This document shows positions 25 to 24,628 of a stretch of DNA of 49,955 nt, one piece after another. The stretch is from Candidatus Ratteibacteria bacterium (GTDB taxonomy: Bacteria > CAZDME01 > JAYEMH01). The stretch lies in contig JAYEMH010000007.1 in assembly GCA_034717985.1 (NCBI GenBank), positions 1 through 49,955 of the forward strand, in the 5' to 3' direction. The notes beneath the pieces are model-generated. The model saw only the letters and a list, made by a program, of their open reading frames with translations, did no database searches and was not told the DNA's origin. Positions within the stretch are counted from its first letter, which is position 1; each line of letters begins with the position of its first letter. The position numbers and the translations under genes are program-made.

Positions 25-215
25 TTTTAGACAGGATTTACAGGATAAAAAAAATAACCACAGAGCTTATGAAGAATATCAAATGGAACCACAGGTGAAC
101 ACAGATGAACACCGAAGAAGAACTTTTTCATAAGGAGGTGCAGGGGGAAAATATAACAGTGTTTCCCTGTGTTAATCTGTGGTTTAAATAAAAATCCTGT
201 TAATCCCGTCAAAAA
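25..215. repeat. Nested inverted repeats built of 9-10-nt tandem units
   Basis: Outer arms 25-46 (ttttagacaggatttacaggat) and 194-215 match 19/22 as reverse complements. Inner arms 87-112 (aaccacaggtgaacacagatgaacac) and 159-184 match 21/26. Confidence 0.85.
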
Positions 216-261
216 AAGAAAAAGATTTTTGACAGAACCAAGATGGAAGATGGGAGTGTTT

Positions 262-645
262 ATGGATATTTTCTCGGAAATAAAATTTAATAAATCGGGA
301 CTTGTCCCGGCAGTCATCCAGGACAGTGAAACCAATCAGGTCTTGATGCAGGCCTATATGAATGAGGAGTCAGTAAGACTTTCGCTGAAGACCGGACTGG
401 CGCATTTTTATAGCCGAAGCCGGAAGAAAATCTGGCGTAAAGGGGAAAAATCCGGCAATGTTCAAGAGATAAAGGAGATTTTTTTAGATTGCGACGGAGA
501 TTCCCTCCTGATTAAAGCGAAACAGAAAACAGCCGCCTGTCATTTAGGATACAAATCTTGTTTTTTCAGAAAGTTAGATCAGGGAAAATGGGGGATTATC
601 GCTCCTAAAATTTTTGACCCGGAAAAGGCCTATGGGAAAAAATAA
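262..645 (+). CDS. hisI: Phosphoribosyl-AMP cyclohydrolase
   Basis: GLVPAVIQD, YSRSR..W.KGE.SG, DCDGD and ACH.G..SCF motifs. Start moved to ATG 262, which follows GGGAG. Confidence 0.95.
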   Translation: MDIFSEIKFNKSGLVPAVIQDSETNQVLMQAYMNEESVRLSLKTGLAHFYSRSRKKIWRKGEKSGNVQEIKEIFLDCDGDSLLIKAKQKTAACHLGYKSCFFRKLDQGKWGIIAPKIFDPEKAYGKK

Positions 646-2113
646 ATACTCTCTCAGTCTTGAAGAGTTTAAAAAGAAAGCGCTTTGCGGCAATCTTATT
701 CCGGTATATCGGGAGATTCTGGCGGATATGGAAACCCCGGTATCGGCTTTTCTTAAAATCGGCGCCCGGCCTTACTCTTATCTGCTGGAAAGTGTTGAAG
801 GAGGGGAGAAATGGGCGCGTTATTCTTTTCTGGGCAGCCAGCCTTCACTGGTTTTCCAGGCTAAGGGGAAGAGGGTTGAAATCAGGGAGGGAAAAGATAA
901 AAAAATTATGGAATCGGATGAGCCTCTCCGGGAATTAAAGAAGATTATGGGAAGATTTCGGCCGGTTTCAAGCAAAGCTCTCCCTCGTTTCTATGGCGGG
1001 CTGGTGGGATATTTGAGTTATGATGCGGTGCGCCATTTTGAGAAACTTCCGGATAGGAATCCCGATGATTTGAACCTGCCCGATTACTTTTTTATGTTAA
1101 CCGATACCCTTTTGATATTTGATAACATCGAGCACACCATAAAGATTGTCTCTAACGCCTTTGTCAGCGGTAGTGAAAAAGAGGCCTATCGGAAAGCGAT
1201 AGAGAAGATTGAACGGATCGAAGAGCTGCTGAAAAAACCTTTATCTTTAAAAGGTGGAAAGAAAGAAAAGAGACCGGGCAAGGGTTGGATTTCTAATTTT
1301 ACTCCCCGGAATTTTGAAACAGCTGTTGATAGGGCAAAAAAGAACATTTATGAAGGAGAGGCAATTCAGGTTGTTCTTTCCCAGCGTTTAAAAGAGGCTT
1401 CGCCGCCTGAGGCAGTTGATATATACCGGGCGCTCAGGATGATTAATCCTTCGCCTTATATGTATTATCTGGGCGGCGAGGATTTTCAAATTATCGGTTC
1501 TTCACCCGAGATTTTGGTGAGAAAAGAGGGGGAGAAAGTTGAATTGCGGCCGATTGCCGGGACGCGTCAAAGGGGCAAAGATAATGAAGAAGATGAAAAA
1601 TTAGCCGGAGAGCTGCTCGCTGACCCAAAAGAGAAAGCGGAGCATATTATGCTGGTTGATCTGGGAAGGAATGATGTCGGCCGGGTGAGTCTTTACGGAA
1701 CGGTTGAGGTTTCCGAGCGGATGGTTATTGAAAAGTATTCCCACGTGATGCATATTGTCTCCCATGTCCAGGGGAAGCTTGCTCCGGGACGCGACGAATT
1801 CGATGTTTTAAAAGCCTGTTTCCCGGCCGGGACGGTAACCGGCGCTCCCAAGATTCGGGCGATGGAAATTATCGATGAATTAGAAAATGTCAAGCGGGGT
1901 CCCTATGCCGGGGCCCTGGGATATTTTAGCTTCTCCCATAATATGGATATGGCCATTATTATCCGCACCCTGGTAATCAAGGATAATTTTGCCTATGTCC
2001 AGGCCGGCGCCGGGATAGTAGCCGATTCTATTCCCGAGAAAGAATATCAGGAAACAATGAATAAAGCCCGGGCGATGATTAAGGCGGTTGAGCTGGCCAG
2101 GAAGGGGTTGTAA
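632..2113 (+). CDS. trpE: Anthranilate synthase component I
   Basis: LLESVEGGEKWARYS, NPSPYMY, PIAGTR, AEHIMLVDLGRND and GAPKIRAM motifs. Confidence 0.95.
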   Translation: MGKNKYSLSLEEFKKKALCGNLIPVYREILADMETPVSAFLKIGARPYSYLLESVEGGEKWARYSFLGSQPSLVFQAKGKRVEIREGKDKKIMESDEPLRELKKIMGRFRPVSSKALPRFYGGLVGYLSYDAVRHFEKLPDRNPDDLNLPDYFFMLTDTLLIFDNIEHTIKIVSNAFVSGSEKEAYRKAIEKIERIEELLKKPLSLKGGKKEKRPGKGWISNFTPRNFETAVDRAKKNIYEGEAIQVVLSQRLKEASPPEAVDIYRALRMINPSPYMYYLGGEDFQIIGSSPEILVRKEGEKVELRPIAGTRQRGKDNEEDEKLAGELLADPKEKAEHIMLVDLGRNDVGRVSLYGTVEVSERMVIEKYSHVMHIVSHVQGKLAPGRDEFDVLKACFPAGTVTGAPKIRAMEIIDELENVKRGPYAGALGYFSFSHNMDMAIIIRTLVIKDNFAYVQAGAGIVADSIPEKEYQETMNKARAMIKAVELARKGL

Positions 2114-2677
2114 ATGATCGTTATTATTGATAATTTCGACTCTTTTACCTACAATCTGGTGCAAGCTTTAGGTCAGGGCGGAGAAGAGATCAAGGTTTTT
2201 CGAAACAATGCCTTTTCGCTGGAAGAGATACAGAATCTTAATCCGGAAAAGATTGTCATTTCTCCCGGACCGGGACGGCCGGCAATGGCCGGCTTAAGTT
2301 GTTTACTGGTGCAAAAACTGGCCGGGAAATTTCCCATTCTTGGCGTTTGTCTGGGGCATCAGGTTATCGGCGAGGTCTTCGGAGCAGAGGTGGTTCAGGC
2401 CGAACGGATAATGCACGGGAAGACTTCTCTTATTCATCATCAGGGAAAAGATATTTTTAAAAATCTCGCCAATCCCTTTGAGGCAACTCGATATCACTCT
2501 TTAATTCTTAAAAAGGAATTTTTTCCGGATTGTTTGGAGATAACGGCCGAAACGGAAGAAAAAGAGATTATGGCGGTAAAGCATCGCCGTTATCCTGTTT
2601 TTGGAGTCCAGTTTCATCCGGAATCCATTTTGAGCAAAGAGGGAAAAAAACTGCTTAATAACTTTTTGGAGATATGA
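2114..2677 (+). CDS. trpG: Anthranilate synthase component II (glutamine amidotransferase)
   Basis: IDNFDSFTYNL, SPGPG, GVCLGHQ and QFHPES motifs. Directly follows trpE. Confidence 0.93.
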   Translation: MIVIIDNFDSFTYNLVQALGQGGEEIKVFRNNAFSLEEIQNLNPEKIVISPGPGRPAMAGLSCLLVQKLAGKFPILGVCLGHQVIGEVFGAEVVQAERIMHGKTSLIHHQGKDIFKNLANPFEATRYHSLILKKEFFPDCLEITAETEEKEIMAVKHRRYPVFGVQFHPESILSKEGKKLLNNFLEI

Positions 2678-2678
2678 A

Positions 2679-3440
2679 ATGAATTGGTCTGAGGCTTTAT
2701 TTGAACCCAGCGGGGCAATTTTTCAAAAAATCGGTGTGTTTTTCTTAATTTTACTCACCGTGCTGGTGTTTCTTCTTTTTGGCTGGCTGCTGGCGCATTT
2801 ACTCAGAAAGGCGGCCCGGGTGTTATTTAAAAAGTTAAGTCTGAACGAGCTTCTTGCGGAAACCTGGGCAGGGAAATTTTTAAGGCGGGGAGGGATAACT
2901 AAATCCCCGACCGAACTTTTAGGCGGATTTTTGTATTGGCTGATAATTGTTATTTTCATTGTTATTGCCTCTCAGAGTTTGGGACTGGATTCTACAGCTG
3001 ATTTATTGGACCGATTTCTGATTTTTCTTCCCCGGGTGATTGCCTTTGCCTTAATTTTGATCTTCGGGATTGTTTTTGGAAGTTTCATGGGAAAATTATT
3101 TCAGATTGTTTCCGGAAATCTCGGGGTGAAAGAATTTAAAGTTATCGGCCGGATTCTTCAGGTAGTGATTGTTTTGTATGCGGGCGTTTTGGCTTTGGAG
3201 CAGTTAGGTATGGCGGTTTTTGCCGTGGCTGCTTCTTTTAATATTCTATGGGCGGCTGTTTGTCTTACTTTAGCCCTGGCCATGGGATTGGGAGGAAAGG
3301 ATTGGGTCAAAAATCTTCTGGATAATTTTGCTAAAAAAAGGTTCGGCAAGGGAAATTCCCCGAAACAAAGCACTCAAAGAGTTAATAGAAAAAAGTCAAA
3401 AAAAGCCGGCGGAAAACAGGAGACGTTTCCTTATGATTAA
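2679..3440 (+). CDS. Membrane protein, CmpX/MscS TM-helix repeat type
   Basis: About five hydrophobic helices with the FLPRVIAFALILIFG and ALAMGLGGKD patterns of this family. Confidence 0.7.
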   Translation: MNWSEALFEPSGAIFQKIGVFFLILLTVLVFLLFGWLLAHLLRKAARVLFKKLSLNELLAETWAGKFLRRGGITKSPTELLGGFLYWLIIVIFIVIASQSLGLDSTADLLDRFLIFLPRVIAFALILIFGIVFGSFMGKLFQIVSGNLGVKEFKVIGRILQVVIVLYAGVLALEQLGMAVFAVAASFNILWAAVCLTLALAMGLGGKDWVKNLLDNFAKKRFGKGNSPKQSTQRVNRKKSKKAGGKQETFPYD

Positions 3441-4479
3441 AGAAGCGATAAGCAAAGTTATTGAAAAAATAGATTTGAGTCAAAGAGAGATGGAATCGGT
3501 AATGGATGAGATTATGACCGGCCGGAGTTCACCGGCTCAAATTGGAGCTTTTCTGACGGCTTTGCGGCTTAAAGGGGAGACGGTTGAAGAAATTACCGGA
3601 GCGGCCCGGGTGATGCGCCAGAAAGCCGCCCGGATAAAAACTTTCGGGGATAAAGTTAAAATCGATGAGGATGAAATTATTGATACCTGCGGCACCGGCG
3701 GAACCGGTACCAATACTTTTAATGTTTCCACTACCAGCGCTTTTGTGGCTGCCGGGGCCGGTTTGAAAGTAGCCAAGCATGGAAACAAATCTGTTTCCTC
3801 CCTCTGCGGCAGCGCCGATGTTATCGATGCCCTGGGGATTAGTTTGAAGCTTAGTTCCGAGGCGGTGGGTGAGTGTATTAAAGAAGTGGGGATAGGTTTT
3901 CTCTTTGCTCCTCTTTTTCATAGAGCGATGAAATATGCCATTGGCCCCCGAAGAGAGATTGGCATCCGCACAATTTTTAACATTTTAGGGCCCTTGACCA
4001 ACCCTGCCGGAGCAACTTCCCAGGTAATGGGTGTTTATGAGGAAAAGCTGACTGAAATTTTAGCCCGGGTGTTAGGGAATCTGGGTCTGAGGCATGCTTT
4101 AGTTGTTCACGGAATGGACGGTCTGGATGAAATTACCGTAACCCGGGAAAGTAAAATTTCTGAATTCAAGGAAGGGAAGGTCAAGACTTATTATCTAAAG
4201 CCGGATGATTTTAGCCTCAGCCGCGCTGTTATGGAAGATATAAAAGGCGGCCGGGTAAAAAAGAATGCCGAGATGGTTATTGAGGTTTTGAAGGGAGAAA
4301 AGGGCGCTCCCCGGGATATAGTTCTGCTTAATGCGGCGGCCGCTTTTATCGCCGCTGATAGAGTAAAGAATTTTAAAGAAGGTATCAATATGGCCGAGGC
4401 CTCTATTGATGAAGGCAAAGCCCTGGAAAAGTTAGAGGCACTTAGGAAAAAGACACAGGAGTTGGGAAAAAGCTGTTGA
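3433..4479 (+). CDS. trpD: Anthranilate phosphoribosyltransferase
   Basis: DTCGTGG, FNVST, KHGN.SVSS..GSAD and GLDE motifs. Start set at ATG 3433 (MIKEAI). Confidence 0.95.
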   Translation: MIKEAISKVIEKIDLSQREMESVMDEIMTGRSSPAQIGAFLTALRLKGETVEEITGAARVMRQKAARIKTFGDKVKIDEDEIIDTCGTGGTGTNTFNVSTTSAFVAAGAGLKVAKHGNKSVSSLCGSADVIDALGISLKLSSEAVGECIKEVGIGFLFAPLFHRAMKYAIGPRREIGIRTIFNILGPLTNPAGATSQVMGVYEEKLTEILARVLGNLGLRHALVVHGMDGLDEITVTRESKISEFKEGKVKTYYLKPDDFSLSRAVMEDIKGGRVKKNAEMVIEVLKGEKGAPRDIVLLNAAAAFIAADRVKNFKEGINMAEASIDEGKALEKLEALRKKTQELGKSC

Positions 4480-4488
4480 TAAGGTAAT

Positions 4489-5268
4489 ATGGTTTCTTTA
4501 GATGAAATTTTAAAGGTAACTCACGAGAGGGTTGAAAGAGCGAAATCGAGCCTGCCTCCGGATGAACTTCAAAAAAGATGCCAGAATAGCCCTCCTGTCC
4601 GCAGTTTTCAAAAAGCCTTAATAACCTCCCCGACAATAGCCTTAATTGGCGAGATAAAAAAAGCCTCTCCCTCCGCCGGTCTTATTCGAGAAGATTTTTC
4701 GCCGTTGAAGCTGGCTAAAATCTATTTAGAAAACGGGGCGCGCGCTTTATCGGTTTTAACCGAGGAGAAATTTTTCCAGGGGAAGCTTGATTATCTTTTA
4801 AAGATAAGGGGAAAGATAGAGCTGCCCCTCCTGCGTAAAGATTTCATTATTGACGAATATCAGGTCTTTGAATCGCGTTTCTTCGGGGCGGATGCGATTC
4901 TGCTGATTGTCTCTGTCTTAAGCGACGAAAAAATAAATAGACTTTTCCGTTTAGCCCGGGAATCAGGCATGGAGGTAATAGTGGAAATTCACAGCGAAGA
5001 AGACTGGCGGCGGATATCTTCTCTTCCGGCTAAATTAATCGGTATAAACAACCGCAATTTAAAAACTTTGACGACAGACTTATCCACCACCTTTAAGTTA
5101 GCGCCGTTTATTTCCAAAAATCAGGTAGTCATCAGTGAAAGCGGCATAAAGACGAGGGAGGATGTTCTGAATTTGGAAAAAGCCGGGGTTAAAGGGATTT
5201 TAGTCGGTGAAACAATTATGGGAAGCCGGGATGCGGCGCAGAAGATAAGGTATTTACTGGGGAAATGA
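4489..5268 (+). CDS. trpC: Indole-3-glycerol phosphate synthase
   Basis: EIKKASPS, SVLTE, LRKDFI, GINNRNL and SESGI motifs. Confidence 0.95.
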   Translation: MVSLDEILKVTHERVERAKSSLPPDELQKRCQNSPPVRSFQKALITSPTIALIGEIKKASPSAGLIREDFSPLKLAKIYLENGARALSVLTEEKFFQGKLDYLLKIRGKIELPLLRKDFIIDEYQVFESRFFGADAILLIVSVLSDEKINRLFRLARESGMEVIVEIHSEEDWRRISSLPAKLIGINNRNLKTLTTDLSTTFKLAPFISKNQVVISESGIKTREDVLNLEKAGVKGILVGETIMGSRDAAQKIRYLLGK

Positions 5269-5894
5269 CGCGGATAAAAATATGCGGGATTACTAATCTG
5301 GAAGATGCGCTGTTGGCGGCGAGTTTGGGTGCGGACGCGGTGGGTTTTATATTTGCTCCCAGTCCCCGGCAGATTAATTTAGCTAAAGCCAGGGATATTA
5401 TTAAAAAGATCCCTCCTTTTATCAGTCCGGTCGGTGTTTTTGTTAATGAAAAGCTGGAAAAAATTAGAGAGACAGCTGATGAATGTCCCCTGGATTATAT
5501 TCAGCTTCACGGGGAAGAGCCGCCGGAATTCTGCCGGAGTTTGTTTCCGCAAAAAATTATTAAAACCTTCCGGATAAAAGATGAAAAAAGCTTAGAACGA
5601 GTTTCTTCCTATTTTCAAGTTAGAGCGATTTTGCTGGATACATTTGTGGAGGGCCAAGCCGGCGGAACCGGAAAAACTTTTAACTGGCGGCTGGCCGAAG
5701 AAACTAAAAAAATTGGCAGACCGATTATTCTCTCCGGCGGGCTTTCACCGCAAAATGTCCGACAGGCAATCGAATCGGCTGCCCCTTTTGCCGTAGATGT
5801 TTCCAGCGGCATCGAATCCCATCCGGGGAAAAAAGACAGGGTGAAACTGGCCGCTTTTATAAAGGCCGTCCGGGAAATACCTCAAAATGGTTAA
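5265..5894 (+). CDS. trpF: Phosphoribosylanthranilate isomerase
   Basis: KICGIT, QLHGEE, GGTG.TF.W and DVSSGIE motifs. Confidence 0.95.
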   Translation: MTRIKICGITNLEDALLAASLGADAVGFIFAPSPRQINLAKARDIIKKIPPFISPVGVFVNEKLEKIRETADECPLDYIQLHGEEPPEFCRSLFPQKIIKTFRIKDEKSLERVSSYFQVRAILLDTFVEGQAGGTGKTFNWRLAEETKKIGRPIILSGGLSPQNVRQAIESAAPFAVDVSSGIESHPGKKDRVKLAAFIKAVREIPQNG

Positions 5895-7272: not shown

Positions 7273-7353
7273 GAGTTCTTTGGTAAAATTTAATTTTAGT
7301 TAGTGCTTGCCAGAAAATACGTAATGTTATAGGATAGCAGGTTAGGAGGCAAG

Positions 7354-7707
7354 ATGGAGTTAAAGAGTGAATGTTTGTTCTGCCGGATTATTGAAAGAAA
7401 AATTCCGGCTAAGGTTATTTATGAAAACGAGAAGGTTTTAGCCTTCCACGATATTAACCCTCAAGCTCCGGTTCATATTATTGTTATTCCCAAGAATCAC
7501 ATCGAGCGGGTTTCTGATTTGAAGCGGGAAAATGCCGGCTGGGGAGACGAACTAATTCTGGCGGCGAATAAAATTGCCTCCGATTTAGAGATAAAAGACA
7601 GTGGATACCGTTTAATCATTAATTGCAACAAAGATGCCGGACAGGCAGTTTTTCATCTTCATCTCCATCTCCTCGGCGGACGAAAAATGGCTTGGCCCCC
7701 GGGATGA
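7354..7707 (+). CDS. hinT: Histidine triad (HIT) nucleotide-binding protein
   Basis: CLFC, DINPQAPVH, HLHLHLLGG and WPPG motifs. RBS AGGAGG. Confidence 0.92.
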   Translation: MELKSECLFCRIIERKIPAKVIYENEKVLAFHDINPQAPVHIIVIPKNHIERVSDLKRENAGWGDELILAANKIASDLEIKDSGYRLIINCNKDAGQAVFHLHLHLLGGRKMAWPPG

Positions 7708-7710
7708 AAT

Positions 7711-7755
7711 TAGTCAACAGTTAATAGTCCATAGACCATAGTCGATAGTCCATAG
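7711..7755. repeat. Left arm of heptamer inverted repeat (six TAGTCCA-like units)
   Basis: tagtcaa cagttaa tagtcca tagacca tagtcga tagtcca tag. Confidence 0.9.
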
Positions 7756-7824
7756 AGAGAAGAAGTCCAAAGGCGATAGAAAAAACTGTGGACTATGGAC
7801 TAACCGAACGAAGTGAGGTTAAGG

Positions 7825-8177
7825 ATGTTTAAATTTGAAAAGCTGAAAGTTTGGCAGAGAGCAATAAATCTCAGTGCAGAAATTCATAATTTAACTAGAG
7901 AATTCCCTAGAGAGGAATTATATATATATTGGCCAGTCAGATTAAACGAGCCGGAGATTCTATTGCTTTAAATATTGCCGAAGGTTCAACTGGTCAAAGC
8001 AGTGCGGAGTTTAACCAGTTTTTAGGATATGCTATTAGGTCAGCAATTGAGGTTGTCTCGTGTCTGTTCATTGGCAGAGAGAGAAAGATCGTAAATAAGA
8101 GAAATTTCGAGAAATTATATAATGAATTAGAAGAAATTATTAAAATGCTTCAGGGATTACGCAATTCACTTAAATAA
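7825..8177 (+). pseudogene. Four-helix-bundle protein (23S rRNA IVS / Avd-like family), frameshifted in a (TA)5 tract
   Basis: Frame 1 gives MFKFEKLKVWQRAINLSAEIHNLTREFPREELYI. The protein continues in another frame as LASQIKRAGDSIALNIAEG...FLGYAIRSAIEV. Removing one TA at 7919-7928 gives an intact 116-aa ORF. Confidence 0.88.
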
Positions 8178-8222
8178 CTGTGGATTATTAACTATGGACT
8201 GCGGACTGTCGACTATGGACTA
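8178..8222. repeat. Right arm of heptamer inverted repeat (six CTATGGA-like units)
   Basis: ctgtgga ttattaa ctatgga ctgcgga ctgtcga ctatgga cta. Same length as 7711-7755 and its degenerate reverse complement. Confidence 0.9.
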
Positions 8223-8236
8223 GATGGGAGGAAGCA

Positions 8237-11515: not shown

Positions 11516-11659
11516 ATGGAAGGTTATTGCGTTAAATGTAAGGCCAAGAAAGAAATGCAGGAGACTAAAGAGGTTACGATGAAAACCGGCCGCCGGGCGA
11601 TGAAAGGCAAATGTCCCGATTGCGGCACCGCTATGTTTAGAATTCTCGGAAAAAAATAA
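11516..11659 (+). CDS. Small zinc-ribbon protein (DUF5679-like), not in ORF track
   Basis: MEGYCVKCKAKKEMQETKEVTMKTGRRAMKGKCPDCGTAMFRILGKK. Two CxxC motifs and RBS AAGGAGG. Confidence 0.88.
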   Translation: MEGYCVKCKAKKEMQETKEVTMKTGRRAMKGKCPDCGTAMFRILGKK

Positions 11660-11693
11660 GCAAATCGGATATTTTATCAAATTTATCCTGGAG

Positions 11694-11713
11694 GGGGCAG
11701 GCATGCCTGCCCC
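11694..11713. repeat. Perfect 20-bp palindrome (REP-like or terminator hairpin)
   Basis: GGGGCAGGCATGCCTGCCCC. Confidence 0.65.
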
Positions 11714-14844: not shown

Positions 14845-14992
14845 TTAATTACCAATAACCAAGATACAAGTTACAAACAATCACCAATATTCAATAACCA
14901 ATTACCAAACATGATTTTACTATATTTTTTGGTTATTTGAATTTGGTTACTGGTCATTGTTTGATTATTGTTTCTTGATTATTGGTTATTTT
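14845..14992 (-). repeat. ~150-bp heptamer-built hairpin element, copy 1 (TAACCAA family), inverted relative to copies 2 and 3
   Basis: Its reverse complement aligns colinearly with 22593-22732 and 16514-16690. Arms are of the aaccaat and attggtt types. Confidence 0.88.
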
Positions 14993-14993: not shown

Positions 14994-15022
14994 TTGACAA
15001 GGCACCGAAGAGGTGGTATAAA
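14994..15022 (+). promoter_or_regulatory. Sigma70-type promoter for the tonB-like gene
   Basis: TTGACA-17bp-TATAAA with TG extension. Confidence 0.65.
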
Positions 15023-15681: not shown

Positions 15682-15684
15682 AGA

Positions 15685-15772
15685 CCGTATATCGTATTCC
15701 GTATTTCGTATACCGCAAGTATTTTTTCCTGTTTAAGAATCACGATATACGAACGACAGTATACGGAAGACG
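15685..15772. repeat. Heptamer inverted repeat (CGTAT family)
   Basis: Left arm ccgtata tcgtatt ccgtatt tcgtata. Right arm acgatat acgaacg acagtat acggaag. Confidence 0.75.
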
Positions 15773-16497: not shown

Positions 16498-16513
16498 AAA
16501 GTTGTATGGAGAT

Positions 16514-16707
16514 AAAATAACCAAGATACAAGAAACAATAACCAAATAATAACCAATAACCAAATTCAAATAACCAAAAAATATGATAAAATTAGTAATA
16601 AACTGATAGGTTTGATGATTGGTTATTGAATATTGATGATTGTTTGTAACTTGTATCTTGGTGATTGGTGATTTAGGTAATTGGTGATTTAATAGATATC
16701 TTTGACA
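16514..16707 (+). repeat. Heptamer-built hairpin element, copy 2 (TAACCAA family)
   Basis: aaccaagatacaagaaacaataaccaaataataaccaataaccaaattcaaataaccaaaaaatat...ttggttattgaatattg...ttggtgatttaatagatatctttgaca. Confidence 0.88.
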
Positions 16708-16735: not shown

Positions 16736-17512
16736 ATGCAAAGTTTTGAGATAAATCCTTTGAAAGTTAAAAAGCAGTTAGTTGAATTCATAAAGGAAGA
16801 GGTAGATAAGCGGGGATTTTCTAAGGTTGTTATCGGGCTTTCCGGCGGAATTGATTCTACCGTAGCGGCTTATCTGGCCGTAAAAGCCTTAGGGAAGGAT
16901 AACGTGATAGGATTATTACTGCCTTATGGGAAAGCTTTTATAACCGATCTAACCATCGCCAGACTGGCTGCCGAGAACCTTAAGATAGAAACTAAAGAGA
17001 TTGATATCTCTGCAGCGGTTGATGCCGCCTGTTTTTTAGTCGGGTGTGCGCGGGATAAAGTTGGAAAAGGAAATATTATGGCCCGGATACGGATGATTAT
17101 TCTCTACGACCGTTCCCGCTTTTTAAATGCGCTGGTTTTAGGCACCGGCAATAGAAGCGAAAGTCTTTTAGGTTATTGCACTCTCTGGGGAGACATGGCC
17201 TGTGCTATCGCCCCGCTGGGCAGTTTGTATAAAACACAGGTTTACACCTTAGCCAATCATCTGGGTATTCCTCAGACAATTATCAAAAAGCCTCCTTCGG
17301 CCGGGTTATGGGAGGGCCAGATTGACGAAGATGAATTAGGGGTTACTTATAAAGAAGCTGACCGTTTATTATATTTTATGGTTGATAAGAAATATAATTT
17401 TGACCGATTACGGCGGGAGGGATTTCAGTCAAGTTTCATTTATCGGGTAAAAAGTATCTTAGCCCAGGCTGCATTTAAGAGACAATGGCCGGCGGTGCCG
17501 AAACGCAGTTAG
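16736..17512 (+). CDS. nadE: NH3-dependent NAD+ synthetase
   Basis: GLSGGIDS, GNIMARIRM, GTGN.SE..LGY.T.WGD and PSAGLWEGQ.DE motifs. No glutaminase domain. Confidence 0.93.
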   Translation: MQSFEINPLKVKKQLVEFIKEEVDKRGFSKVVIGLSGGIDSTVAAYLAVKALGKDNVIGLLLPYGKAFITDLTIARLAAENLKIETKEIDISAAVDAACFLVGCARDKVGKGNIMARIRMIILYDRSRFLNALVLGTGNRSESLLGYCTLWGDMACAIAPLGSLYKTQVYTLANHLGIPQTIIKKPPSAGLWEGQIDEDELGVTYKEADRLLYFMVDKKYNFDRLRREGFQSSFIYRVKSILAQAAFKRQWPAVPKRS

Positions 17513-18846: not shown

Positions 18847-18873
18847 TATTTCCTCCTTTAGATTTACACCCTG

Positions 18874-18902
18874 ATTATAACCCAAATTGATTGGTAAGGC
18901 AA
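18874..18902 (-). promoter_or_regulatory. Sigma70-type promoter of glnA
   Basis: Minus strand TTGCCT-17bp-TATAAT. Confidence 0.6.
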
Positions 18903-18926
18903 GAAGAAAAGAAGAAAAGTTACTCC

Positions 18927-18955
18927 TTTACAAAGGTTCTGAAGTATGCTATGTT
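18927..18955 (+). promoter_or_regulatory. Sigma70-type promoter of the rpsU operon (divergent from glnA)
   Basis: TTTACA-17bp-TATGTT with TG extension. Confidence 0.55.
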
Positions 18956-19015
18956 ATTTTAATATGCAGGATATACTAAAAGGGTAATATTGCCCGAGAA
19001 AGGGGTGTAAGAGAA

Positions 19016-19180
19016 TTGTCAAAAGTCGAATTAAGGCCAAATGAGCCTTTAGAAAGAGCTCTGCGCCGATTTAAGAAGAAAGTGGATCGCGAAGGAATAA
19101 TCCAGGAGATTAGAAGGCACGAGCATTATGAGAAACCCAGTCAAAGAAAACGACGGGAAAAAACAGGAAAGAAAAAATAG
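19016..19180 (+). CDS. rpsU: 30S ribosomal protein S21, not in ORF track
   Basis: TTG start. MSKVELRPNEPLERALRRFKKKVDREGIIQEIRRHEHYEKPSQRKRREKTGKKK. Confidence 0.93.
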   Translation: MSKVELRPNEPLERALRRFKKKVDREGIIQEIRRHEHYEKPSQRKRREKTGKKK

Positions 19181-19182
19181 GA

Positions 19183-19461
19183 ATGTCCGGAGAGAAAAAG
19201 GAAGAAATTAAAAAGGCTGAAGATTATCTGGATATAGGTAAACTCTATTTTCTCAATCAGAGATATGAAGAAGCCCTTTCTGCTTTCCAAAAAGTAATAG
19301 AATTAGAGCCGGGAAATCCTCAAGGGTACTATAATTTGGGTCTGGTTTATGAAAGCAAAAATATGATGCTTGAGGCTAAAAAGATGTTTACCCAAACCTT
19401 AGAGTTGGATTCCAAATTCAAACCGGCGGAAGACCATCTGGCTAAATTGGTAGGCATATAA
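19183..19461 (+). CDS. Small TPR-repeat protein
   Basis: Two TPR consensus repeats (YEEAL.AFQKVIELEP, YYNLGLVY). Confidence 0.8.
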   Translation: MSGEKKEEIKKAEDYLDIGKLYFLNQRYEEALSAFQKVIELEPGNPQGYYNLGLVYESKNMMLEAKKMFTQTLELDSKFKPAEDHLAKLVGI

Positions 19462-19465
19462 AAAA

Positions 19466-19879
19466 GTGAATGCTAAAGCAAAGTTAAACTTAGCTTTCTG
19501 TTTAATTTTTTTTATTCAGGGATGTATTCCGCTTGCCTATCCCTTCAAAGAGGCAATTCCTTCAAAAATCAGAGCTCAAGGGGAGGCAGAGGCTTGCTTT
19601 CAACTGGAAGATCCCAGGCAGGTGCGGCGCTTAGCCGCAGAAGCAGCCTATAGCGAAGCAATGTTTAACTTAATGCGAAAAATCGAAGATTTGTATATTA
19701 CTCCCCTGTCCCGGGTTGGAACTATTCTGGAAAGAAATCCTCAGGCAAAACTTGAGGTTCTCAGTCTGGTTAATCAGGCCCGGATAAGAAAGACGCGGTT
19801 TCTAAAAGAAAGAAAGATTATGGTTGAATTAGAATTAAATGGGGATAAATTAAGAGAAGTGCTTTCACCTTATCGTTAG
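19466..19879 (+). CDS. Hypothetical lipoprotein
   Basis: Signal peptide with a lipobox-like IQGC. Fits the operon spacing. Confidence 0.6.
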   Translation: MNAKAKLNLAFCLIFFIQGCIPLAYPFKEAIPSKIRAQGEAEACFQLEDPRQVRRLAAEAAYSEAMFNLMRKIEDLYITPLSRVGTILERNPQAKLEVLSLVNQARIRKTRFLKERKIMVELELNGDKLREVLSPYR

Positions 19880-19883
19880 AAAA

Positions 19884-20426
19884 ATGCGATTAGCCAATAA
19901 ACTTACCGTTTTAAGAATACTTTTAGTCCCCTTATTTCTCATCTGTATTGTTTATTATCGGCCGGAAAATGAGAAGCTCAGGATAATTGCCTTATGCCTT
20001 TTTGCTTTAGCTGTTTTAACTGATTTTGTTGACGGAATAATTGCCCGGGCTAAAGGAGAAAAGACAAGACTGGGAAGTATTCTTGACCCTCTGGCGGATA
20101 AGCTGCTTTTGGTCAGCGCTTTTATTTCTTTGAGCCGGGCGCAGCTTCCCGTAACCTTGCCGGCCTGGGTAGTAATAACCGTAATCAGCCGGGATATCAT
20201 TATTGTCCTGGGGGCGGTGATAATTCATTTTATCACCGGGCAATTGGAAGTTATTCCCAGCCGCTTGGGCAAGCTTACTACTTTTTTCCAGATGGCGACC
20301 GTGATTAGCATCCTCTTGAATTTTACTTTTTCGTGTTTCTTTTGGTATGCCGCGGCAGTTTTTACTCTTCTTTCCGGGCTTGATTATATCCGTCAGGGAA
20401 GCAGATTGCTGAACGAGAATAAATGA
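19884..20426 (+). CDS. pgsA: CDP-diacylglycerol--glycerol-3-phosphate 3-phosphatidyltransferase
   Basis: AN.LT..RI and D..DG..AR.....T.LG..LDPLADK motifs. Confidence 0.88.
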   Translation: MRLANKLTVLRILLVPLFLICIVYYRPENEKLRIIALCLFALAVLTDFVDGIIARAKGEKTRLGSILDPLADKLLLVSAFISLSRAQLPVTLPAWVVITVISRDIIIVLGAVIIHFITGQLEVIPSRLGKLTTFFQMATVISILLNFTFSCFFWYAAAVFTLLSGLDYIRQGSRLLNENK

Positions 20427-21097
20427 ATACACTTTTCTTCTTAGCTTTAATTATTATTGTTGTTGGATATCTTATCGGCTCTTTTCCCACTGCTTATGTT
20501 ATCGGCAAAATATTTACCCGCCGGGATATTCGTAAATTAGGCAGCGGTAATGTCGGAGCAACCAATGCTTTTCGTGTTTCCGGGGTTTTGCCTGGAATAA
20601 TTACTTTGATTGTTGATGTGGGAAAGGGATGCATAGCTGTCCGGGGAGGATACTGGATATTTATAAATAGTCTGCGAATTTTTAACATTGGTTCTTTGAA
20701 AGAAATTACATTTTCGCTTCTTTTGCCTCTTTTTGCCGGCTTGGCGGCTATTATCGGCCATAATTGGCCGGTTTTTCTCAAATTCAAAGGAGGTAAAGGG
20801 GTAGCCGCTACCTTAGGAGTTTGCCTGGCTATTTATCCAACGATAGTCCTATCTGTGATTTTAGTTTGGCTGTTGGTATTAATGTTAGGTAAATATGTTT
20901 CTCTGTCTTCAGTGATTTCCGCTTTAACCTTGCCTCTTTTTGTCTGGTTGTATTCGGCCGGGAGAGAGTTAAGTTCAACTTTGCAAATTACTTATAGCTC
21001 GATTTTGGCCCTGCTTATTCTTTGGCGTCACAAGGAGAATATTAAAAGATTAATTCGGCACCAAGAAAGGAAATTTAGTTTTTCGAAAAGTGGCTAA
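20423..21097 (+). CDS. plsY: Glycerol-3-phosphate acyltransferase
   Basis: YLIGSFP, GSGNVGATN, GHNWP.F.KFKGGKGVA and RH.ENI.RL motifs. Confidence 0.95.
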   Translation: MNTLFFLALIIIVVGYLIGSFPTAYVIGKIFTRRDIRKLGSGNVGATNAFRVSGVLPGIITLIVDVGKGCIAVRGGYWIFINSLRIFNIGSLKEITFSLLLPLFAGLAAIIGHNWPVFLKFKGGKGVAATLGVCLAIYPTIVLSVILVWLLVLMLGKYVSLSSVISALTLPLFVWLYSAGRELSSTLQITYSSILALLILWRHKENIKRLIRHQERKFSFSKSG

Positions 21098-22091
21098 TAA
21101 AATTTGTGTTTTAGGAGCCGGTGGCTGGGGAACGACCCTGGCTGTTCTTCTTCACAAAAAAGGACATCAGGTAAGGCTCTGGGAAGTTTTCCCCGATTAC
21201 GCCGGAATTTTAAAAGAAACGAGAGAAAATGTTAAGTTTCTTCCCGGGATAAAAATTCCTGAGGAGATTTTAGTGACCGCTGATTTCGGTGAAGCTTTGG
21301 AGAAAGCCGAAATTGCGGTTATGGCTGTCCCTTCGTTTGCCGTCAGGGAGGTTTCCCGGATGATTGTCCGGGAGAATTCAGGAAAAGGTAGTTTCTTAGT
21401 CTGTGCTTCCAAAGGATTAGAATTATTGAGCAACAAAAGGTTGAGTCAGGTAATTCAGGAAGAAGTGGGAAAGGCTAATCTGGCTGTTTTATCCGGCCCG
21501 AGTCATGCTGAGGAAGTCAGCCGGGAAATTCCAACTTCAGTAGTTGTGGCTTCCCGGTCTTCAGATTTTGCCGAAGTTATTCAAAAGGTTTTTATGACGG
21601 AAAGATTCCGGGTTTATACCAGCTCGGATTTAATCGGGGTTGAGCTGGGAGGGGCGCTTAAGAACATTGTGGCAGTGGCCGCCGGGATATCGGACGGATT
21701 AGGCTATGGTGATAATACCAAAGCCGCTCTTTTAACCCGGGGAATAGTAGAGATAAGAAAGTTAGGAGTGGCTTTAGGGGCGGAGTTAGCCACCTTTAGC
21801 GGTCTTTCCGGAATGGGTGATTTGATTGCTACCTGTGTCAGCCCTTACAGCCGTAACCGCAGACTGGGGGAGGAGATAGGAAAGGGAAAAACCTTGGGGC
21901 AGGCTTTGGCTGAAACGGAAATGGTAGTTGAAGGGGTAAATACCAGTCGGGCGGCAGATGAACTTTCCCGTCGGTTAAATATTGAGATGCCGATTACCGG
22001 TGAAATTAAAAGAGTATTGTTTGGAGGGAAGTCTCCTCTTCAAGCGGTTAAAGATTTGATGACTCGTAAAGCTAAGTCAGAAAAAGATTAA
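21090..22091 (+). CDS. gpsA: NAD(P)H-dependent glycerol-3-phosphate dehydrogenase
   Basis: GAGGWG, SGPSHAEEV, GGALKN and GDL.ATC.S..SRN motifs. Confidence 0.95.
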   Translation: MANKICVLGAGGWGTTLAVLLHKKGHQVRLWEVFPDYAGILKETRENVKFLPGIKIPEEILVTADFGEALEKAEIAVMAVPSFAVREVSRMIVRENSGKGSFLVCASKGLELLSNKRLSQVIQEEVGKANLAVLSGPSHAEEVSREIPTSVVVASRSSDFAEVIQKVFMTERFRVYTSSDLIGVELGGALKNIVAVAAGISDGLGYGDNTKAALLTRGIVEIRKLGVALGAELATFSGLSGMGDLIATCVSPYSRNRRLGEEIGKGKTLGQALAETEMVVEGVNTSRAADELSRRLNIEMPITGEIKRVLFGGKSPLQAVKDLMTRKAKSEKD

Positions 22092-22096
22092 CCTAA

Positions 22097-22432
22097 ATGG
22101 AAGTAAATCTGCCTAAAAAATTGTATTACACCCTGGCCGAAGCCGGCAATTTTCTAAGGGTTAAACCGCATGTTTTGCGATATTGGGACAGGGAATTTAA
22201 AGTTAAACAAAGACGGAAGAATAAAAAGCAGTTTCAGAAATATCACCGTGATGACCTCAAGAAATTTCTGGAGATTAAGAGCTGTTTATATGAAAAGCTT
22301 TACAGCGTCGCCGGAGCGAAGAAGAAATTAGCCGAGAAAAAGAGAAAGGCGGTTGACAAAGATGCGGATTACCGGGGACTGCTGCGGCGGGTAAAAAGGG
22401 GACTTAGATTAATCGAGGCAATAGTGAAATAA
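22097..22432 (+). CDS. MerR family transcriptional regulator
   Basis: PKKLYY....A....V.PHVLRYW..EF and LYEK.YS..GAKK motifs. Adjacent to tRNA-Pro(GGG), a common context for this family. Confidence 0.82.
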   Translation: MEVNLPKKLYYTLAEAGNFLRVKPHVLRYWDREFKVKQRRKNKKQFQKYHRDDLKKFLEIKSCLYEKLYSVAGAKKKLAEKKRKAVDKDADYRGLLRRVKRGLRLIEAIVK

Positions 22433-22437
22433 TGCGG

Positions 22438-22514
22438 CGGGGCGTGGCGTAGCTTGGCAGCGCACTCCCTTGGGGTGGGAGAGGTCGTCCGTTCGAATCG
22501 GATCGTCCCGACCA
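22438..22514 (+). tRNA. tRNA-Pro(GGG)
   Basis: Acceptor stem cggggcg/cgtcccg, anticodon arm ctccc-ttGGGgt-gggag, T-loop ttcgaat, CCA end. Confidence 0.95.
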
Positions 22515-22516
22515 AA

Positions 22517-22747
22517 CTCGTATCTCGTATGTTGTATTTCGTATCTCGTGAAAAACAAAGATAAAAAAATTGAAATACGAGATACAAGATACAATAACCA
22601 AGAAACAATAACCAAATAATGACCAATAACCAAATTCAAATAACCAAAAAATATAATAAAATTATGTTTGGTGATTGGTTATCGAATATTGGAATTTATT
22701 TGTATCTTGTATCTTGGTTATTGGTGATTTAATAGATATTTTTGACA
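22517..22747 (+). repeat. Composite heptamer element: CGTAT-family hairpin (22517-22594) fused to TAACCAA-family copy 3 (22593-22747)
   Basis: tcgtatc tcgtatg ttgtatt tcgtatc...gaaatac gagatac aagatac aataacc aagaaac...ttggttattggtgatttaatagatatttttgaca. Confidence 0.88.
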
Positions 22748-22774
22748 GTACCACACGTAGTACAGGGAGAAAAT

Positions 22775-24073
22775 ATGAAGAATAAGGTAAATATTGGTTT
22801 AATCGGCTGGGGGACGGTCGGCAGCGGCGTAGTAAGGATTTTGAAGGAGAGAAAAAAACACCTATCCCGCAGGGTGGGTGCCCAACTTCGGCTAAAATCC
22901 ATTGTTGATCTGGATATCAATAAGGCGCGTTCAGTTAAAGTCAACCGAAAAATTTTAAGCCGGGAGGCAAAAAATATTCTCTCTGATCCGGAAATAGATA
23001 TTGTCGTCCAATTAATCGGAGGAGAGCATCCGGCCAAGGATTATATGACCAATGCTTTTAAAAAAGGCAAATCGGTAGTAACCGCCAATAAAGCCCTGTT
23101 GGCTAAACACGGGAAGGAAATTTTTAAATTAGCCCGGGAGAATAATGCCGAAGTTGGCTATGAAGCCAGTGTTTGCGGCGGTATTCCTTTGATTCGTTCT
23201 ATTAAAGAAGGTCTCCTGGCTAACAAAATCGAAGAGCTGAGGGGAATAATTAACGGCACCTCCAATTACATTCTCACCCGGATGGAAGAGGAGAATTACA
23301 GCTTTAATGAAGCGCTCCAGGAGGCAAAGAAAAGAGGATATGCCGAGGCCGATGCTGGTCTGGATATCAGCGGATTGGATTCAGCCCATAAACTGGCGGT
23401 TCTTGCTTCGTTGACTTTTGGCACTTCTGTTGCCTTATCCGATATCTATGTGGAGGGGATTGATTTAATAACTCTCCAGGATATCCGGTATGCGCGCGAA
23501 TTAGGTTACGCGGTGAAACTTTTAGCCATAGCCAAGGAAAAGCAGGGTCGGATTGAAGCCAGGGTTCATCCGGTTTTAATATCGGCTGATTATATTTTAG
23601 CCTCGGTAAGGCATAATTTTAATGCTGTTTGTCTCAAGGGAGATAAGGTCGGTGAATTAATTTTTTACGGAGCCGGAGCCGGACAACTCCCCACGGCCAG
23701 TTCTGTAGTCAGTGATATTTGCGATATTGCCGGCAAACTTATTCGGGGCGGAAAAGGCAGGGTGAATTCTTTTTTATATGATGCACTCTCCAAAAAAGTT
23801 TCCCCTATCAACAAACTGGAATCGCGTTATTATGTTCGCTTTACCACCTTGGATAATCCCGGAGTTCTGGCTAAGATTTCCCGGATTCTGGGGAGAAAAA
23901 ACATAAGCATTGCTTCAGTAATACAAAAACAAAGGAAGGAAGGCCGGACTGTTCCCATTGTGATGATGACCCACAAAGCCCTGGAAGAAAATATGCGCCG
24001 GGCCTTAGGGCAAATAGATAAGCTCTCTGTCGTCAAAGGTAAAACAGTTGCCATTAGGGTAGAGGAAGTTTAA
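22775..24073 (+). CDS. hom: Homoserine dehydrogenase with C-terminal ACT domain
   Basis: G.GTVGSG, TANKALLA, EASV.GGIP, NGT.NYIL and GAGAG.LPTAS motifs. Confidence 0.95.
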   Translation: MKNKVNIGLIGWGTVGSGVVRILKERKKHLSRRVGAQLRLKSIVDLDINKARSVKVNRKILSREAKNILSDPEIDIVVQLIGGEHPAKDYMTNAFKKGKSVVTANKALLAKHGKEIFKLARENNAEVGYEASVCGGIPLIRSIKEGLLANKIEELRGIINGTSNYILTRMEEENYSFNEALQEAKKRGYAEADAGLDISGLDSAHKLAVLASLTFGTSVALSDIYVEGIDLITLQDIRYARELGYAVKLLAIAKEKQGRIEARVHPVLISADYILASVRHNFNAVCLKGDKVGELIFYGAGAGQLPTASSVVSDICDIAGKLIRGGKGRVNSFLYDALSKKVSPINKLESRYYVRFTTLDNPGVLAKISRILGRKNISIASVIQKQRKEGRTVPIVMMTHKALEENMRRALGQIDKLSVVKGKTVAIRVEEV

Positions 24074-24079
24074 AAGCTC

Positions 24080-24114
24080 ATAGGTGATAGGGAATAGGGA
24101 GTAGGTGTTAGGTG
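24080..24114 (+). repeat. Heptamer tandem array (five ATAGGGA-like units), single arm
   Basis: ataggtg ataggga ataggga gtaggtg ttaggtg. Confidence 0.75.
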
Positions 24115-24115
24115 A

Positions 24116-24478
24116 ATGAGGAAAAAGGAATTGGGGTTAACTTTAGTTGAAGTAATGATTGTAATTTGTATTCTGGGTTTGATAATTGCCGTGGCTTTGC
24201 CAAATTTTTTGCGGGCTAGACGGGAGGCAAATGCTAAACTTTGTCTTACTAATCTTAAACAGATTGAGGCGGCCAAGGAACGTTGGAGTTTTTCTTACGG
24301 AGCGGCTCTTGATGAAGAAATTTATATAACAGATTTAGTTCCGGACTTTATAAGGGTGGCTCCTGTTTGCCCGGACAACGGAGAGTATACGCCGGGAATC
24401 CTCGTCGATAATCCAACTTGCAGTATCGGCACAAATAATACAGCTGAAATATTTGACGACCACGAATTACCTTATTAA
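24116..24478 (+). CDS. Prepilin-type N-terminal cleavage/methylation protein (type IV pilin / pseudopilin)
   Basis: G|LTLVEVMIVICILGLIIAVALPNF, C..NLKQI and the CP..G.Y...P.CS pattern. Confidence 0.88.
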   Translation: MRKKELGLTLVEVMIVICILGLIIAVALPNFLRARREANAKLCLTNLKQIEAAKERWSFSYGAALDEEIYITDLVPDFIRVAPVCPDNGEYTPGILVDNPTCSIGTNNTAEIFDDHELPY

Positions 24479-24480
24479 AA

Positions 24481-24628
24481 TAGACCATAGACGATAGACC
24501 ACAGACAATAGACTAAGGTGAAAAAAATAAATAGAGATTAAAAGAATTATAGGCAAAAAATCAGGAAGGATACTCCAGAGGTTGACTGTTTACATAGAAA
24601 AGTCTGAAGTCTAATGTCTATAGTCTGC
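24481..24628. repeat. Heptamer inverted repeat (TAGACCA family) with an ~85-bp loop
   Basis: Left arm tagacca tagacga tagacca cagacaa tagacta. Right arm agtctga agtctaa tgtctat agtctgc. Confidence 0.8.

Follow-up and report, generated by a model that had tools for sequence, protein, structure and literature searches.

What are the arrays of short, degenerate tandem units that fill eight intergenic gaps of a bacterial housekeeping region, and how are they related to the small four-helix-bundle gene that one of them encloses? The question is raised by contig JAYEMH010000007.1 of a Candidatus Ratteibacteria bacterium (assembly GCA_034717985.1), whose 49,955 nt, read on the forward strand, are called the window here; it is contig 7 (C7) of a 1.01-Mb assembly of 49 contigs that is 88.5% complete (G000). 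An initial annotation proposed that the eight gaps may hold gene-carrying and empty forms of one poorly characterised mobile or RNA-processing system, and it is the main point of that proposal that has stood. The eight gaps probably, if with appreciable room for doubt, hold members of a genome-wide population of hairpins in filled and empty forms, cassettes that resemble the intervening sequences (IVSs) of rRNA and lie outside rRNA, since the same architecture normally houses genes of the family PF05635 and, with longer units of the CACAG type, GxxExxY (PDDEXK_3) genes.

Among the window elements, only the one between the gene of a HIT protein and a phosphoglycerate-mutase-like gene (apgM) has a PF05635 open reading frame (ORF) in its loop, the other seven being without an ORF match. 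It is made up of the following parts, where the folding z-score, as in all cases below, compares the RNA folding of an element with that of 40-100 dinucleotide shuffles.

7710-8226, plus strand: whole PF05635 hairpin cassette, 517 nt, flanked by the stop codon of the HIT gene (7705-7707) and by GGAGG, the ribosome-binding site of apgM, at 8227.
7711-7757, plus strand: 5' arm, an ATAGTCC-type heptamer array (Tandem Repeats Finder, inverted-repeat search).
7785-7802, plus strand: inner complementary arm of the GGACTAT type, forming a small hairpin with 7725-7755 just upstream of the gene (z -4.7 for 7711-7810).
7825-8177, plus strand: four-helix-bundle gene of the PF05635/TIGR02436 family, frameshifted in a TA run near 7921-7930.
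8177-8223, plus strand: 3' arm, a GGACTAT-type heptamer array complementary to 7711-7757 (Tandem Repeats Finder, inverted-repeat search).

The stretch 7929-8177 matches the PF05635 profile with an E-value of 1e-22 and 80.8 bits (cut-off 33.8). Unlike in the initial annotation, the four-helix-bundle gene proves to have its reading frame shifted: it is split over two frames, 7837-7923 and 7923-8156. Two nucleotides of the TA run at 7921 are missing both from a metagenome contig of a close relative (run X4) and from a paralogue on contig C6, and the window copy is either a pseudogene or an assembly error. Similarity of the C6 paralogue, whose gene is intact, to the window copy begins at the first array unit and stops at the last, the sequences beyond being unrelated. 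The two proteins are 89-92% identical, one or two heptamer units and an insertion of 18 nt distinguish the two copies, and arms, inner hairpin and gene form one shared block between unrelated neighbours.

Presence/absence polymorphism is seen at this site. The cassette is missing at the same junction in G001 and G002, with which the gene order of G000 is conserved, and the X4 contig joins position 7709 to position 8227 with AATA between them, skipping 517 nt; loose ends in a further run, X3, agree with this. Because X4 skips the whole cassette, the gene and its arms come and go jointly, the boundaries being 7710 and 8226. In this one filled/empty pair, the sequence without the cassette is ...GAAA AATA GGAGG..., and no target duplication is evident in the allele that carries it. 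The cassette, sharply bounded, is acquired or lost whole, in the spacer from a stop codon to the ribosome-binding site that follows.

The link between such hairpins and the four-helix-bundle family, which the initial annotation had suggested from a single filled element, holds well beyond the window. G000 carries five PF05635 loci (82-140 bits), and all five lie between inverted arms, which are built from four different units: CGTATTT at C47, ATAGTCC at C6 and C7, a GGTTGRC-like unit with a period of ~8 at C38, and TTGACAN at C8. The four copies outside the window are intact, and the one at C47 reaches 127.7 bits against TIGR02436 (cut-off 24). The comparison set consisted of 30 genomes of other species (G001-G030), of which only G001 and G002 belong to the same family as G000 and the rest to other families. 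PF05635 is found in 12 of the 31 genomes, G000 included, and of the 29 loci in the sampled genomes that could be tested, 19 are flanked by arms that exceed shuffled sequence at z >= 3.9, each of these loci having a unit of its own (L011 was left out, its flank being too short). In G019, nineteen partial PF05635 matches cover profile positions ~10-100 only, several of them as head-to-head pairs ~150-200 nt apart (for instance C7:104028-104225 on the minus strand and 104402-104554 on the plus strand of that genome), and the 40 kb sampled from this genome showed no array of period 7; these matches may represent a different, decayed or rearranged form.

A wider test used 80 PF05635 loci from public genomes of Nitrospira, Planctomycetes, Bacteroidota (cultured Flavobacterium among them), Luteimonas, Elizabethkingia, the Candidate Phyla Radiation (CPR), cyanobacteria, Clostridia and archaea, 76 of which could be scored (L047, L089, L101 and L113 were left out for short flanks). 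The arm score compares the upstream flank with the reverse-complemented downstream flank, with cut-offs of >= 28 and >= 36. At the lower cut-off, arms enclose 60 of the 76 PF05635 loci versus 28 of 407 other ORFs of the same loci, even with the controls given more sequence; at the higher one the counts are 36/76 and 12/407, and the median scores are 34 and 19. The best period of the 5' arm in the 60 enclosed loci is 7 in 46, 8 in 12 and another value in 2. PIN genes, a size-matched mobile control family, gave 1/29 at >= 28 and 0/29 at >= 32 (29 of 30 loci scored, L171 left out). Units of the GGGNATC/GGGGAYT type flank PF05635 genes in Luteimonas and Microcoleaceae loci (L068, L108). The high-scoring control ORFs (21) include a GxxExxY/PDDEXK_3 gene (score 110), a DUF559 gene (score 70) and four PF05635-like ORFs, these last identified by eye from the sequence.

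GxxExxY genes appear to occupy a second class of these hairpins. In G000, the GxxExxY gene C8:13412-13750 and a C-terminal remnant at C37:1040-1186 are enclosed by arms of the ACAGATT/CACAGAG type, and elsewhere, arms surround 7 of 20 GxxExxY loci; the periods of these arms are 8-11 nt, and CACAG/CTGTG motifs are frequent in them. For this test 24 of 26 PDDEXK_3 loci were taken (L147 and L148 overlap L143 and L145), minus 4 with short flanks. The first window element, 25-215, has CACAG-type units like those flanking the C8 gene and the C37 remnant; its units measure ~10 nt, not the 9 nt of the initial annotation, and its membership of this class with 8-11-nt arms probably explains why 9-mers had been read there.

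The arrays themselves go with the gene family. About 40 kb was sampled from each of G001-G030. Among PF05635-bearing genomes, 6 of 11 showed period-7 arrays (27 arrays in 435 kb, two of them being flanks of a PF05635 gene), versus 0 of 19 genomes without the family (none in 713 kb; Mann-Whitney p 2.5e-4, in a small sample of self-chosen regions, some on contigs known to hold the gene, and with kin that are not independent). Many arrays in the carrier genomes, whose G+C content runs from 39% to 64%, are visibly paired hairpins. The 435 kb around the 76 diverse loci contain 46 period-7 arrays at distances above 400 nt from the gene, the other periods giving 0-9. In G028 (64% G+C; L206, L216), a second repeat is interspersed among the heptamer hairpins: a GC-rich palindrome of the GGGCGCACNNNGTGCGCCCCTAC type, which is similar to repetitive extragenic palindromes (REP-like).

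A scan of G000 for periodic arrays, as the initial annotation had recommended, singles out the heptamers. With sliding 28-nt windows, self-matches of at least 75% and periods from 2 to 15, period 7 gives 89 regions, its harmonic 14 gives 53, and each other period 0-12. A looser scan gives 172 arrays of many units (ATAGTCC, ATAGACC, CGTATTT, TAACCAA, AGCTATG, CTGGTTT, ACCTATC and others), 121 of which fall for the most part outside crude ORF calls, in what amounts to 11% of the DNA. Partners and polarity were tested for 151 of these, 21 A/T-rich low-complexity arrays being left out: 69 have a reverse-complement partner within 300 nt at a score of at least 22, where reverse-only and complement-only controls give 11-14. 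About 55 of the 151 thus have an inverted partner beyond the control level, and solo arrays are therefore common; a stricter test pairs 34 of 151. Dispersed near-copies also occur among the hairpins, as at 16514-16707 and 22590-22747 of the window. Within ATAGTCC-type arrays at C6:3200-3260, C30:23320-23358 and C36:27130-27170 there is an insert of ~17-20 nt (CTACTTGTGCCCGYT...GGGTAT), reminiscent of the very small dispersed repeats that Elhai in 2008 reportedly described as inserted in cyanobacterial heptamer arrays.

Within the window, the initial annotation's description of the eight gaps proved accurate in its main lines: all of them contain degenerate short-period units, seven have an inverted arm and form hairpins with z between -2.2 and -7.1, and the array at 24080-24114 has no partner (z +0.5). 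Besides the cassette at 7710-8226, the elements are:

25-215, no strand: empty hairpin of the CACAG class, units ~10 nt, inner arms 87-112/159-184, outer pairing 30-47/195-212, z -5.9.
14845-14992, no strand: empty hairpin of TAACCAA / TTGGTTA units, arms 14847-14909 and 14928-14990, starting 19 nt past the upstream stop codon, z -6.1.
15684-15772, no strand: empty hairpin of CGTATTT / AAATACG units, spanning from the stop codon of a TonB-like gene (15681) to the next start codon (15778), z -2.2, weak.
16514-16707, no strand: empty TAACCAA hairpin carrying a GGTGATT tail and TAATAGATATCTTTGACA, near-copy of 22590-22747, z -4.1.
22517-22608, no strand: empty hairpin of CGTATCT units, beginning 2 nt after tRNA-Pro (22438-22514), z -5.7.
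22590-22747, no strand: empty TAACCAA hairpin plus TAATAGATATTTTTGACA as its tail, preceding the gene for homoserine dehydrogenase, z -5.0.
24080-24114, plus strand: solo array of ATAGGGA/TAGGTGA units without inverted partner, ending 1 nt before the start codon of a prepilin-like (N_methyl) gene, z +0.5.
24480-24628, no strand: empty hairpin, units ATAGACC / AGTCT, loop of 85 nt, z -3.9; its start, arm plus loop, recurs at C33:5539-5638.

Taken over whole elements, folding gives z -5.2 for 7711-8222 and -7.1 for 22517-22747; for the remaining ones the values are -5.9 (25-215), -6.1 (14845-14992), -2.2 (15685-15772, weak), -4.1 (16514-16707), -3.9 (24481-24628) and +0.5 (24080-24114). Tandem Repeats Finder places arrays of period 7 (or 14/21) at 7724-7755, 8191-8222, 14878-14908, 15684-15715, 16516-16563, 16612-16689, 22517-22549, 22575-22716, 24087-24105, 24480-24513 and 24599-24626, and one of period 10 in the first gap, at 90-112. 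An inverted-repeat search finds arms of 26-63 nt with 72-81% complementarity in seven of the eight gaps, among them 87-112/159-184, 7711-7749/8177-8215 with the inner pair 7725-7742/7785-7802, 14847-14909/14928-14990, 15686-15715/15743-15772, 16516-16563/16619-16666, 22520-22549/22577-22606 and 22592-22648/22667-22723.

The elements are fitted closely to the gene spacers. The first 26,000 nt of the window (1-26000) are a co-directional run of housekeeping genes, with hisI (downstream of element 25-215), the HIT protein, apgM, the TonB-like gene, nadE, tRNA-Pro, homoserine dehydrogenase, the prepilin-like gene and threonine synthase. On their upstream side, 1-19 nt separate the elements from the preceding stop codon, or 2 nt from tRNA-Pro, and several stop a few nucleotides short of the next ribosome-binding site or start codon, filling the spacers and leaving the genes untouched. 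Comparison of orthologous junctions gives the following:

HIT>apgM junction: a 529-nt gap with the cassette in G000, a 59-nt gap in G001, a 64-nt gap in G002.
Pilin>thrC junction: an ATAGACC hairpin in G000, a hairpin of a different unit (ATGTGTA) in G001, none in G002.
Junction of the TonB-like gene and the next gene: a CGTATTT hairpin in G000, a shorter hairpin of the same unit in G001, no hairpin in G002.
g17>nadE junction: the 190-nt TAACCAA hairpin (16514-16707) in G000, a GGTGATA-type array in G001, a 25-nt gap in G002.
g13>g14 junction: nothing in G000, a GGACAGR array in G001, nothing in G002.

At the junction of 14845-14992 only a short hairpin is present in G001 and unrelated sequence in G002, the hairpin 22590-22747 is absent at the same junction from both, and so is the array 24080-24114.

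Downstream of several hairpins, within ~10-20 nt, there is T-rich sequence and TTGACA (for example TAATAGATATYTTTGACA and TTTTTGACAGTAC); such tails stand at 226-235, where TTTTTGACAG follows element 25-215, and at 14996-15001, 16701-16706 and 22742-22747 of the window, as well as on C37 and at C47:865-880. At the g15>TonB junction, the TTGACA-N17-TATAAA box belongs to the host, because it is kept in relatives without the hairpin; at the homoserine dehydrogenase junction the relatives are without such a box. A scan for consensus promoters scored no full promoter, the TTGACA tails having no scored -10 box, and its site count was at chance level. Between 7000 and 25000 there are 20 terminator-like sites, where 22 +/- 5 would be expected, and the heptamer hairpins account for none of them; the only convincing intrinsic terminator of the region, at 11694-11713, follows a CxxC...CxxC zinc-ribbon-like ORF (~47 aa, 11516-11660, plus strand) in the g12>g13 gap that is conserved in G001 and G002. 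At 44718-44842 of the window, a 39-nt tandem repeat (2.1-2.3 copies) precedes an A-rich low-complexity run in an A-rich stretch of high GC skew. At the Rfam gathering threshold the window gives two tRNAs only and no rRNA, and none of 10 PF05635 loci searched likewise lies in rRNA.

How such elements might work is suggested by several clues. PF05635 genes share the strand of the upstream ORF in 93/102 loci, of the downstream ORF in 86/96 and of both in 78/94 (baseline for adjacent ORFs 234/317), with a median distance of ~90 nt to each neighbour. This co-orientation fits read-through transcription within host operons. In gene-carrying hairpins across phyla, the first (5') arm is richer in G than in C in 64 of 75 cases, and as an inverted repeat is alike on both strands, an ORF of either orientation is preceded by purine-rich sequence of the Shine-Dalgarno kind and followed by its complement. 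The arms are inverted arrays of ~4-8 degenerate units each, mostly of 7 nt and in a second class of 8-11 nt; in the proposed scheme a filled element would consist of arm, ribosome-binding site with small ORF, and arm, and an empty one of arm, short loop and arm. The element would be transcribed by read-through as part of the host operon, and its long imperfect stem might be cut by a double-strand RNase, by analogy with RNase III on rRNA IVSs, which would make the insertion nearly harmless to the flanking cistrons. Empty hairpins would be decayed or non-autonomous relatives of filled ones.

The pattern of substitutions bears on how the arms stay paired. On the cargo sense strand, the arm mismatches of 77 loci comprise 66 G·U versus 76 A·C pairs (binomial p 0.45) and 233 others, so that most of the mismatches are transversions. 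Pairing at the RNA level is thus not supported by the substitution pattern, no RNA-level selection is claimed here, and the part of the initial annotation that invoked RNA stems looped out or cleaved from operon transcripts does not share in the support given to its main point. The complementarity of the arms is more simply explained by homogenisation at the DNA level: slippage in the arrays together with repair in extruded hairpins could maintain it, which would explain the missing G·U bias. The units differ between loci even within one genome, in keeping with the earlier idea that identity is encoded by periodicity and pairing and not by primary sequence. Across 39 loci, protein identity is uncorrelated with heptamer-unit distance (rho -0.02, permutation p 0.32), which speaks against a protein that recognises the sequence of the unit at its own locus; as unit similarity is independent of protein similarity, a sequence-specific co-evolution of the two was rejected at this depth.

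Several observations count against the preferred reading of the gaps as filled and empty members of one population of IVS-like cassettes, the lack of a G·U excess being one of them. The mostly empty hairpins of G000 have the opposite polarity to the gene-carrying ones, with a C-rich first arm in 22 and a G-rich one in 6 (empty hairpins elsewhere split 9 to 5 with 4 ties, too few to test). Roughly 60% of the arrays in G000 have no detectable inverted partner. RNase III (PF14622, PF00636) was not found in the 88.5% complete assembly of G000, and it is present in 5/5 array-bearing relatives searched. Of the PF05635-bearing genomes, 5/11 show no array in the 40 kb sampled, and the genome sample is small, self-chosen and made up in part of kin that are not independent. 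Finally, a tblastn search of the genome with the four intact PF05635 proteins and the GxxExxY protein (E <= 5) recognised no gene remnant in the window loops besides 7825-8177, so that the second, probable remnant of the initial annotation is unconfirmed and descent of the empty loops from filled ones is unsupported in the window. The same search gave a weak match at C47:744-818 (E 0.15), within a CACGG-type hairpin, which is possibly a cargo remnant.

The closest known parallels are the IVSs in 23S (and 16S) rRNA, such as those of Leptospira and Coxiella, which RNase III excises from the transcript without re-ligation; they are stem-loops with complementary ends that carry an ORF of ~120 aa for a four-helix-bundle protein in the loop, in sense to the host transcript. 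They too are sporadic among relatives, as the cassettes are here, and their complementary borders form a long stem, as is seen at the window elements and the PF05635 loci. According to one study (PMC4990558), IVSs with this protein family have been known from rRNA since the 1990s and their origin is still open; in Coxiella the S23p ORF lies in the loop, the stem is cleaved by RNase III, and its 5' side contains GACAGAT heptamers in tandem, 3-4 depending on the strain. The elements described here differ in that they lie between protein-coding or tRNA genes and not at the tip of an rRNA helix, that both arms are whole arrays of degenerate units, that many copies are empty and that their cleavage is putative.

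Heptanucleotide repeats are a second parallel, and the short tandemly repeated repetitive (STRR) sequences of cyanobacteria are intergenic repeats of this length. As in published cases, the units here stand head to tail in ~4-5 copies, intergenically near stop or start codons and at many sites per genome. Documented repeats are the long simple sequence repeats (LSSR; Mrazek 2007, summarised in PMC4679880), TAACTGA in Beggiatoaceae, Cyanobacteria and Bacteroidetes (PMC4679880), GGGNATC in Xanthomonas and Nostoc (PMC4692102) and GGACCGG and MTYCTGA in Geobacter metallireducens (PMC2700814), and regulatory effects are ascribed to Nostoc heptamers. In the portions of these sources covered, TAACTGA, GGGNATC and the Geobacter repeats are treated, unlike here, as one unit per organism and as direct repeats, and no link to PF05635 or GxxExxY genes and no class of inverted array pairs is mentioned there, although the supplementary legends of the Geobacter paper (PMC2700814) hint at paired strands and its supplementary figures, outside the search, may show inverted heptamer arrays.

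REP sequences and bacterial interspersed mosaic elements (BIMEs), and the REP doublets known as REPINs with their REP-associated tyrosine transposases (RAYTs), are likewise abundant intergenic hairpins between co-directional or convergent genes, and the window has a Y1 gene with inverted repeats:

35148-35893, plus strand: Y1-transposase-like (RAYT-like) ORF of 226 aa (35211-35891) between a near-perfect 24-nt inverted repeat (35148-35171 / 35870-35893).

The REPINs of one genome, however, share a sequence that matches the RAYT flanks, whereas here the units are many and unrelated and the RAYT flanks are not the dispersed units. The Avd protein of diversity-generating retroelements (DGRs) belongs to a related family, the C47 copy matching NF033474 with an E-value of 1.8e-9 (below its cut-off), but the genes here stand alone inside hairpins and not beside a template repeat and reverse transcriptase; no reverse transcriptase was found in G000, which makes a DGR-type role unlikely here. 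PF05635 genes have been noted wedged between cas genes and PF05635 ORFs in CPR rRNA insertions. Outside supplements and some older papers, which the search did not cover, no report was found of PF05635 or GxxExxY genes beyond rRNA that are generally enclosed by inverted arrays of short units. The same search found no report of a co-occurrence of heptamer arrays with PF05635 or of cassette polymorphism between relatives, the one rRNA IVS of Coxiella being the sole link; earlier mentions are possible.

Three other explanations deserve to be weighed. The arrays might be ordinary slippage-prone heptanucleotide repeats of the LSSR/STRR kind, with PF05635 and GxxExxY genes preferring or surviving in hairpins that already existed, so that the arms would be target DNA. 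In many bacteria no long simple repeats are more common than these (Mrazek 2007, as summarised in PMC4679880), and the independence of arm unit from protein relatedness, the many solo arrays and the empty hairpins with ATAGTCC arms and short loops, which occur in G000 and in related metagenome contigs, are all as this explanation would have it. It accords poorly with the joint absence of arms and gene at the one site resolved at population level, with the C6 and C7 copies, which share arms, inner hairpin and gene as a block between unrelated neighbours, and with the lack of arrays in 713 kb of genomes without the gene family, which is unexpected if the arrays are independent of it; we consider it unlikely on balance.

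There is little likelihood, in our judgement, that the hairpins are REPIN-like and owe their movement to a transposase of the Y1 (RAYT) type acting in trans, for example that of 35211-35891, with the PF05635 genes as passengers. REPINs are indeed hairpin doublets in intergenic DNA (PMC3116915), the Y1_Tnp ORF of the window lies between its own inverted repeat, and Y1_Tnp occurs in 23 of the 31 genomes, including all 12 that bear PF05635, G000 among them. But Y1_Tnp does not set array-bearing genomes apart, being carried also by 11 of the 19 genomes without arrays in the sample, the flanking repeat is found at only three places in G000 (at most 3 mismatches, the third at C41:1432) and is not an array unit, and dozens of unrelated units would have to be recognised by one or two sequence-guided enzymes. 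That the hairpins regulate host genes (by stabilising mRNA between cistrons, as attenuators, as sites for protein binding or as switches of phase variation), are kept for their neighbours and have nothing to do with mobility seems similarly improbable: none is flagged as an intrinsic terminator (20 sites versus 22 +/- 5 expected), the orthologous junctions in G001 and G002 are often without a hairpin or have one of a different unit, and the enclosure of PF05635 and GxxExxY genes is left unexplained. It would suit the way in which elements span from stop codon to next ribosome-binding site in co-directional gene runs, and regulatory roles of heptamer repeats have been proposed in Nostoc, Beggiatoaceae and Geobacter. 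It would also suit the arrays at prepilin-like genes: heptamer arrays abut or overlap the 5' ends of such genes (C4:1944-1984, C4:3281-3315 and window 24080-24114), where a change in unit number, by 7 nt, may shift start or frame and so act as a phase-variation switch.

A broader version of the preferred reading, in which the hairpins are IVS-like cassettes, can be put forward only tentatively, as a possibility that we would not expect to hold in full. PF05635 and GxxExxY genes would be the gene-bearing members of widespread mobile hairpin cassettes that are defined by structure, rRNA IVSs would be the subset that landed in rRNA, and the intergenic heptamer arrays (STRR/LSSR) would be empty relatives or footprints of them. 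The solved relatives of the PF05635 protein reportedly (via PMC4990558) form rings of five subunits, which can be set beside the approximately five units per array, and a ring protein may bind the array for spread, processing or maintenance.

PF05635/TIGR02436 is a large protein family without known function, and the intergenic heptamer repeats of cyanobacteria, Xanthomonas, Beggiatoaceae and Geobacter are a separate puzzle of long standing. The present analysis joins the two, since PF05635 genes are mostly housed between inverted heptamer arrays (60 of 76 loci), the arrays are seen only in carrier genomes of the sample, and whole cassettes come and go between close relatives. For annotation, the result is a warning that hairpins inside housekeeping operons may be of this kind and differ even between genera of one family. 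For the protein family, cultured carriers such as Flavobacterium, Bacteroides or Nostoc now allow tests of questions such as the binding target of the protein, the cutting of the stem and the spread of a repeat that is defined by period and pairing.

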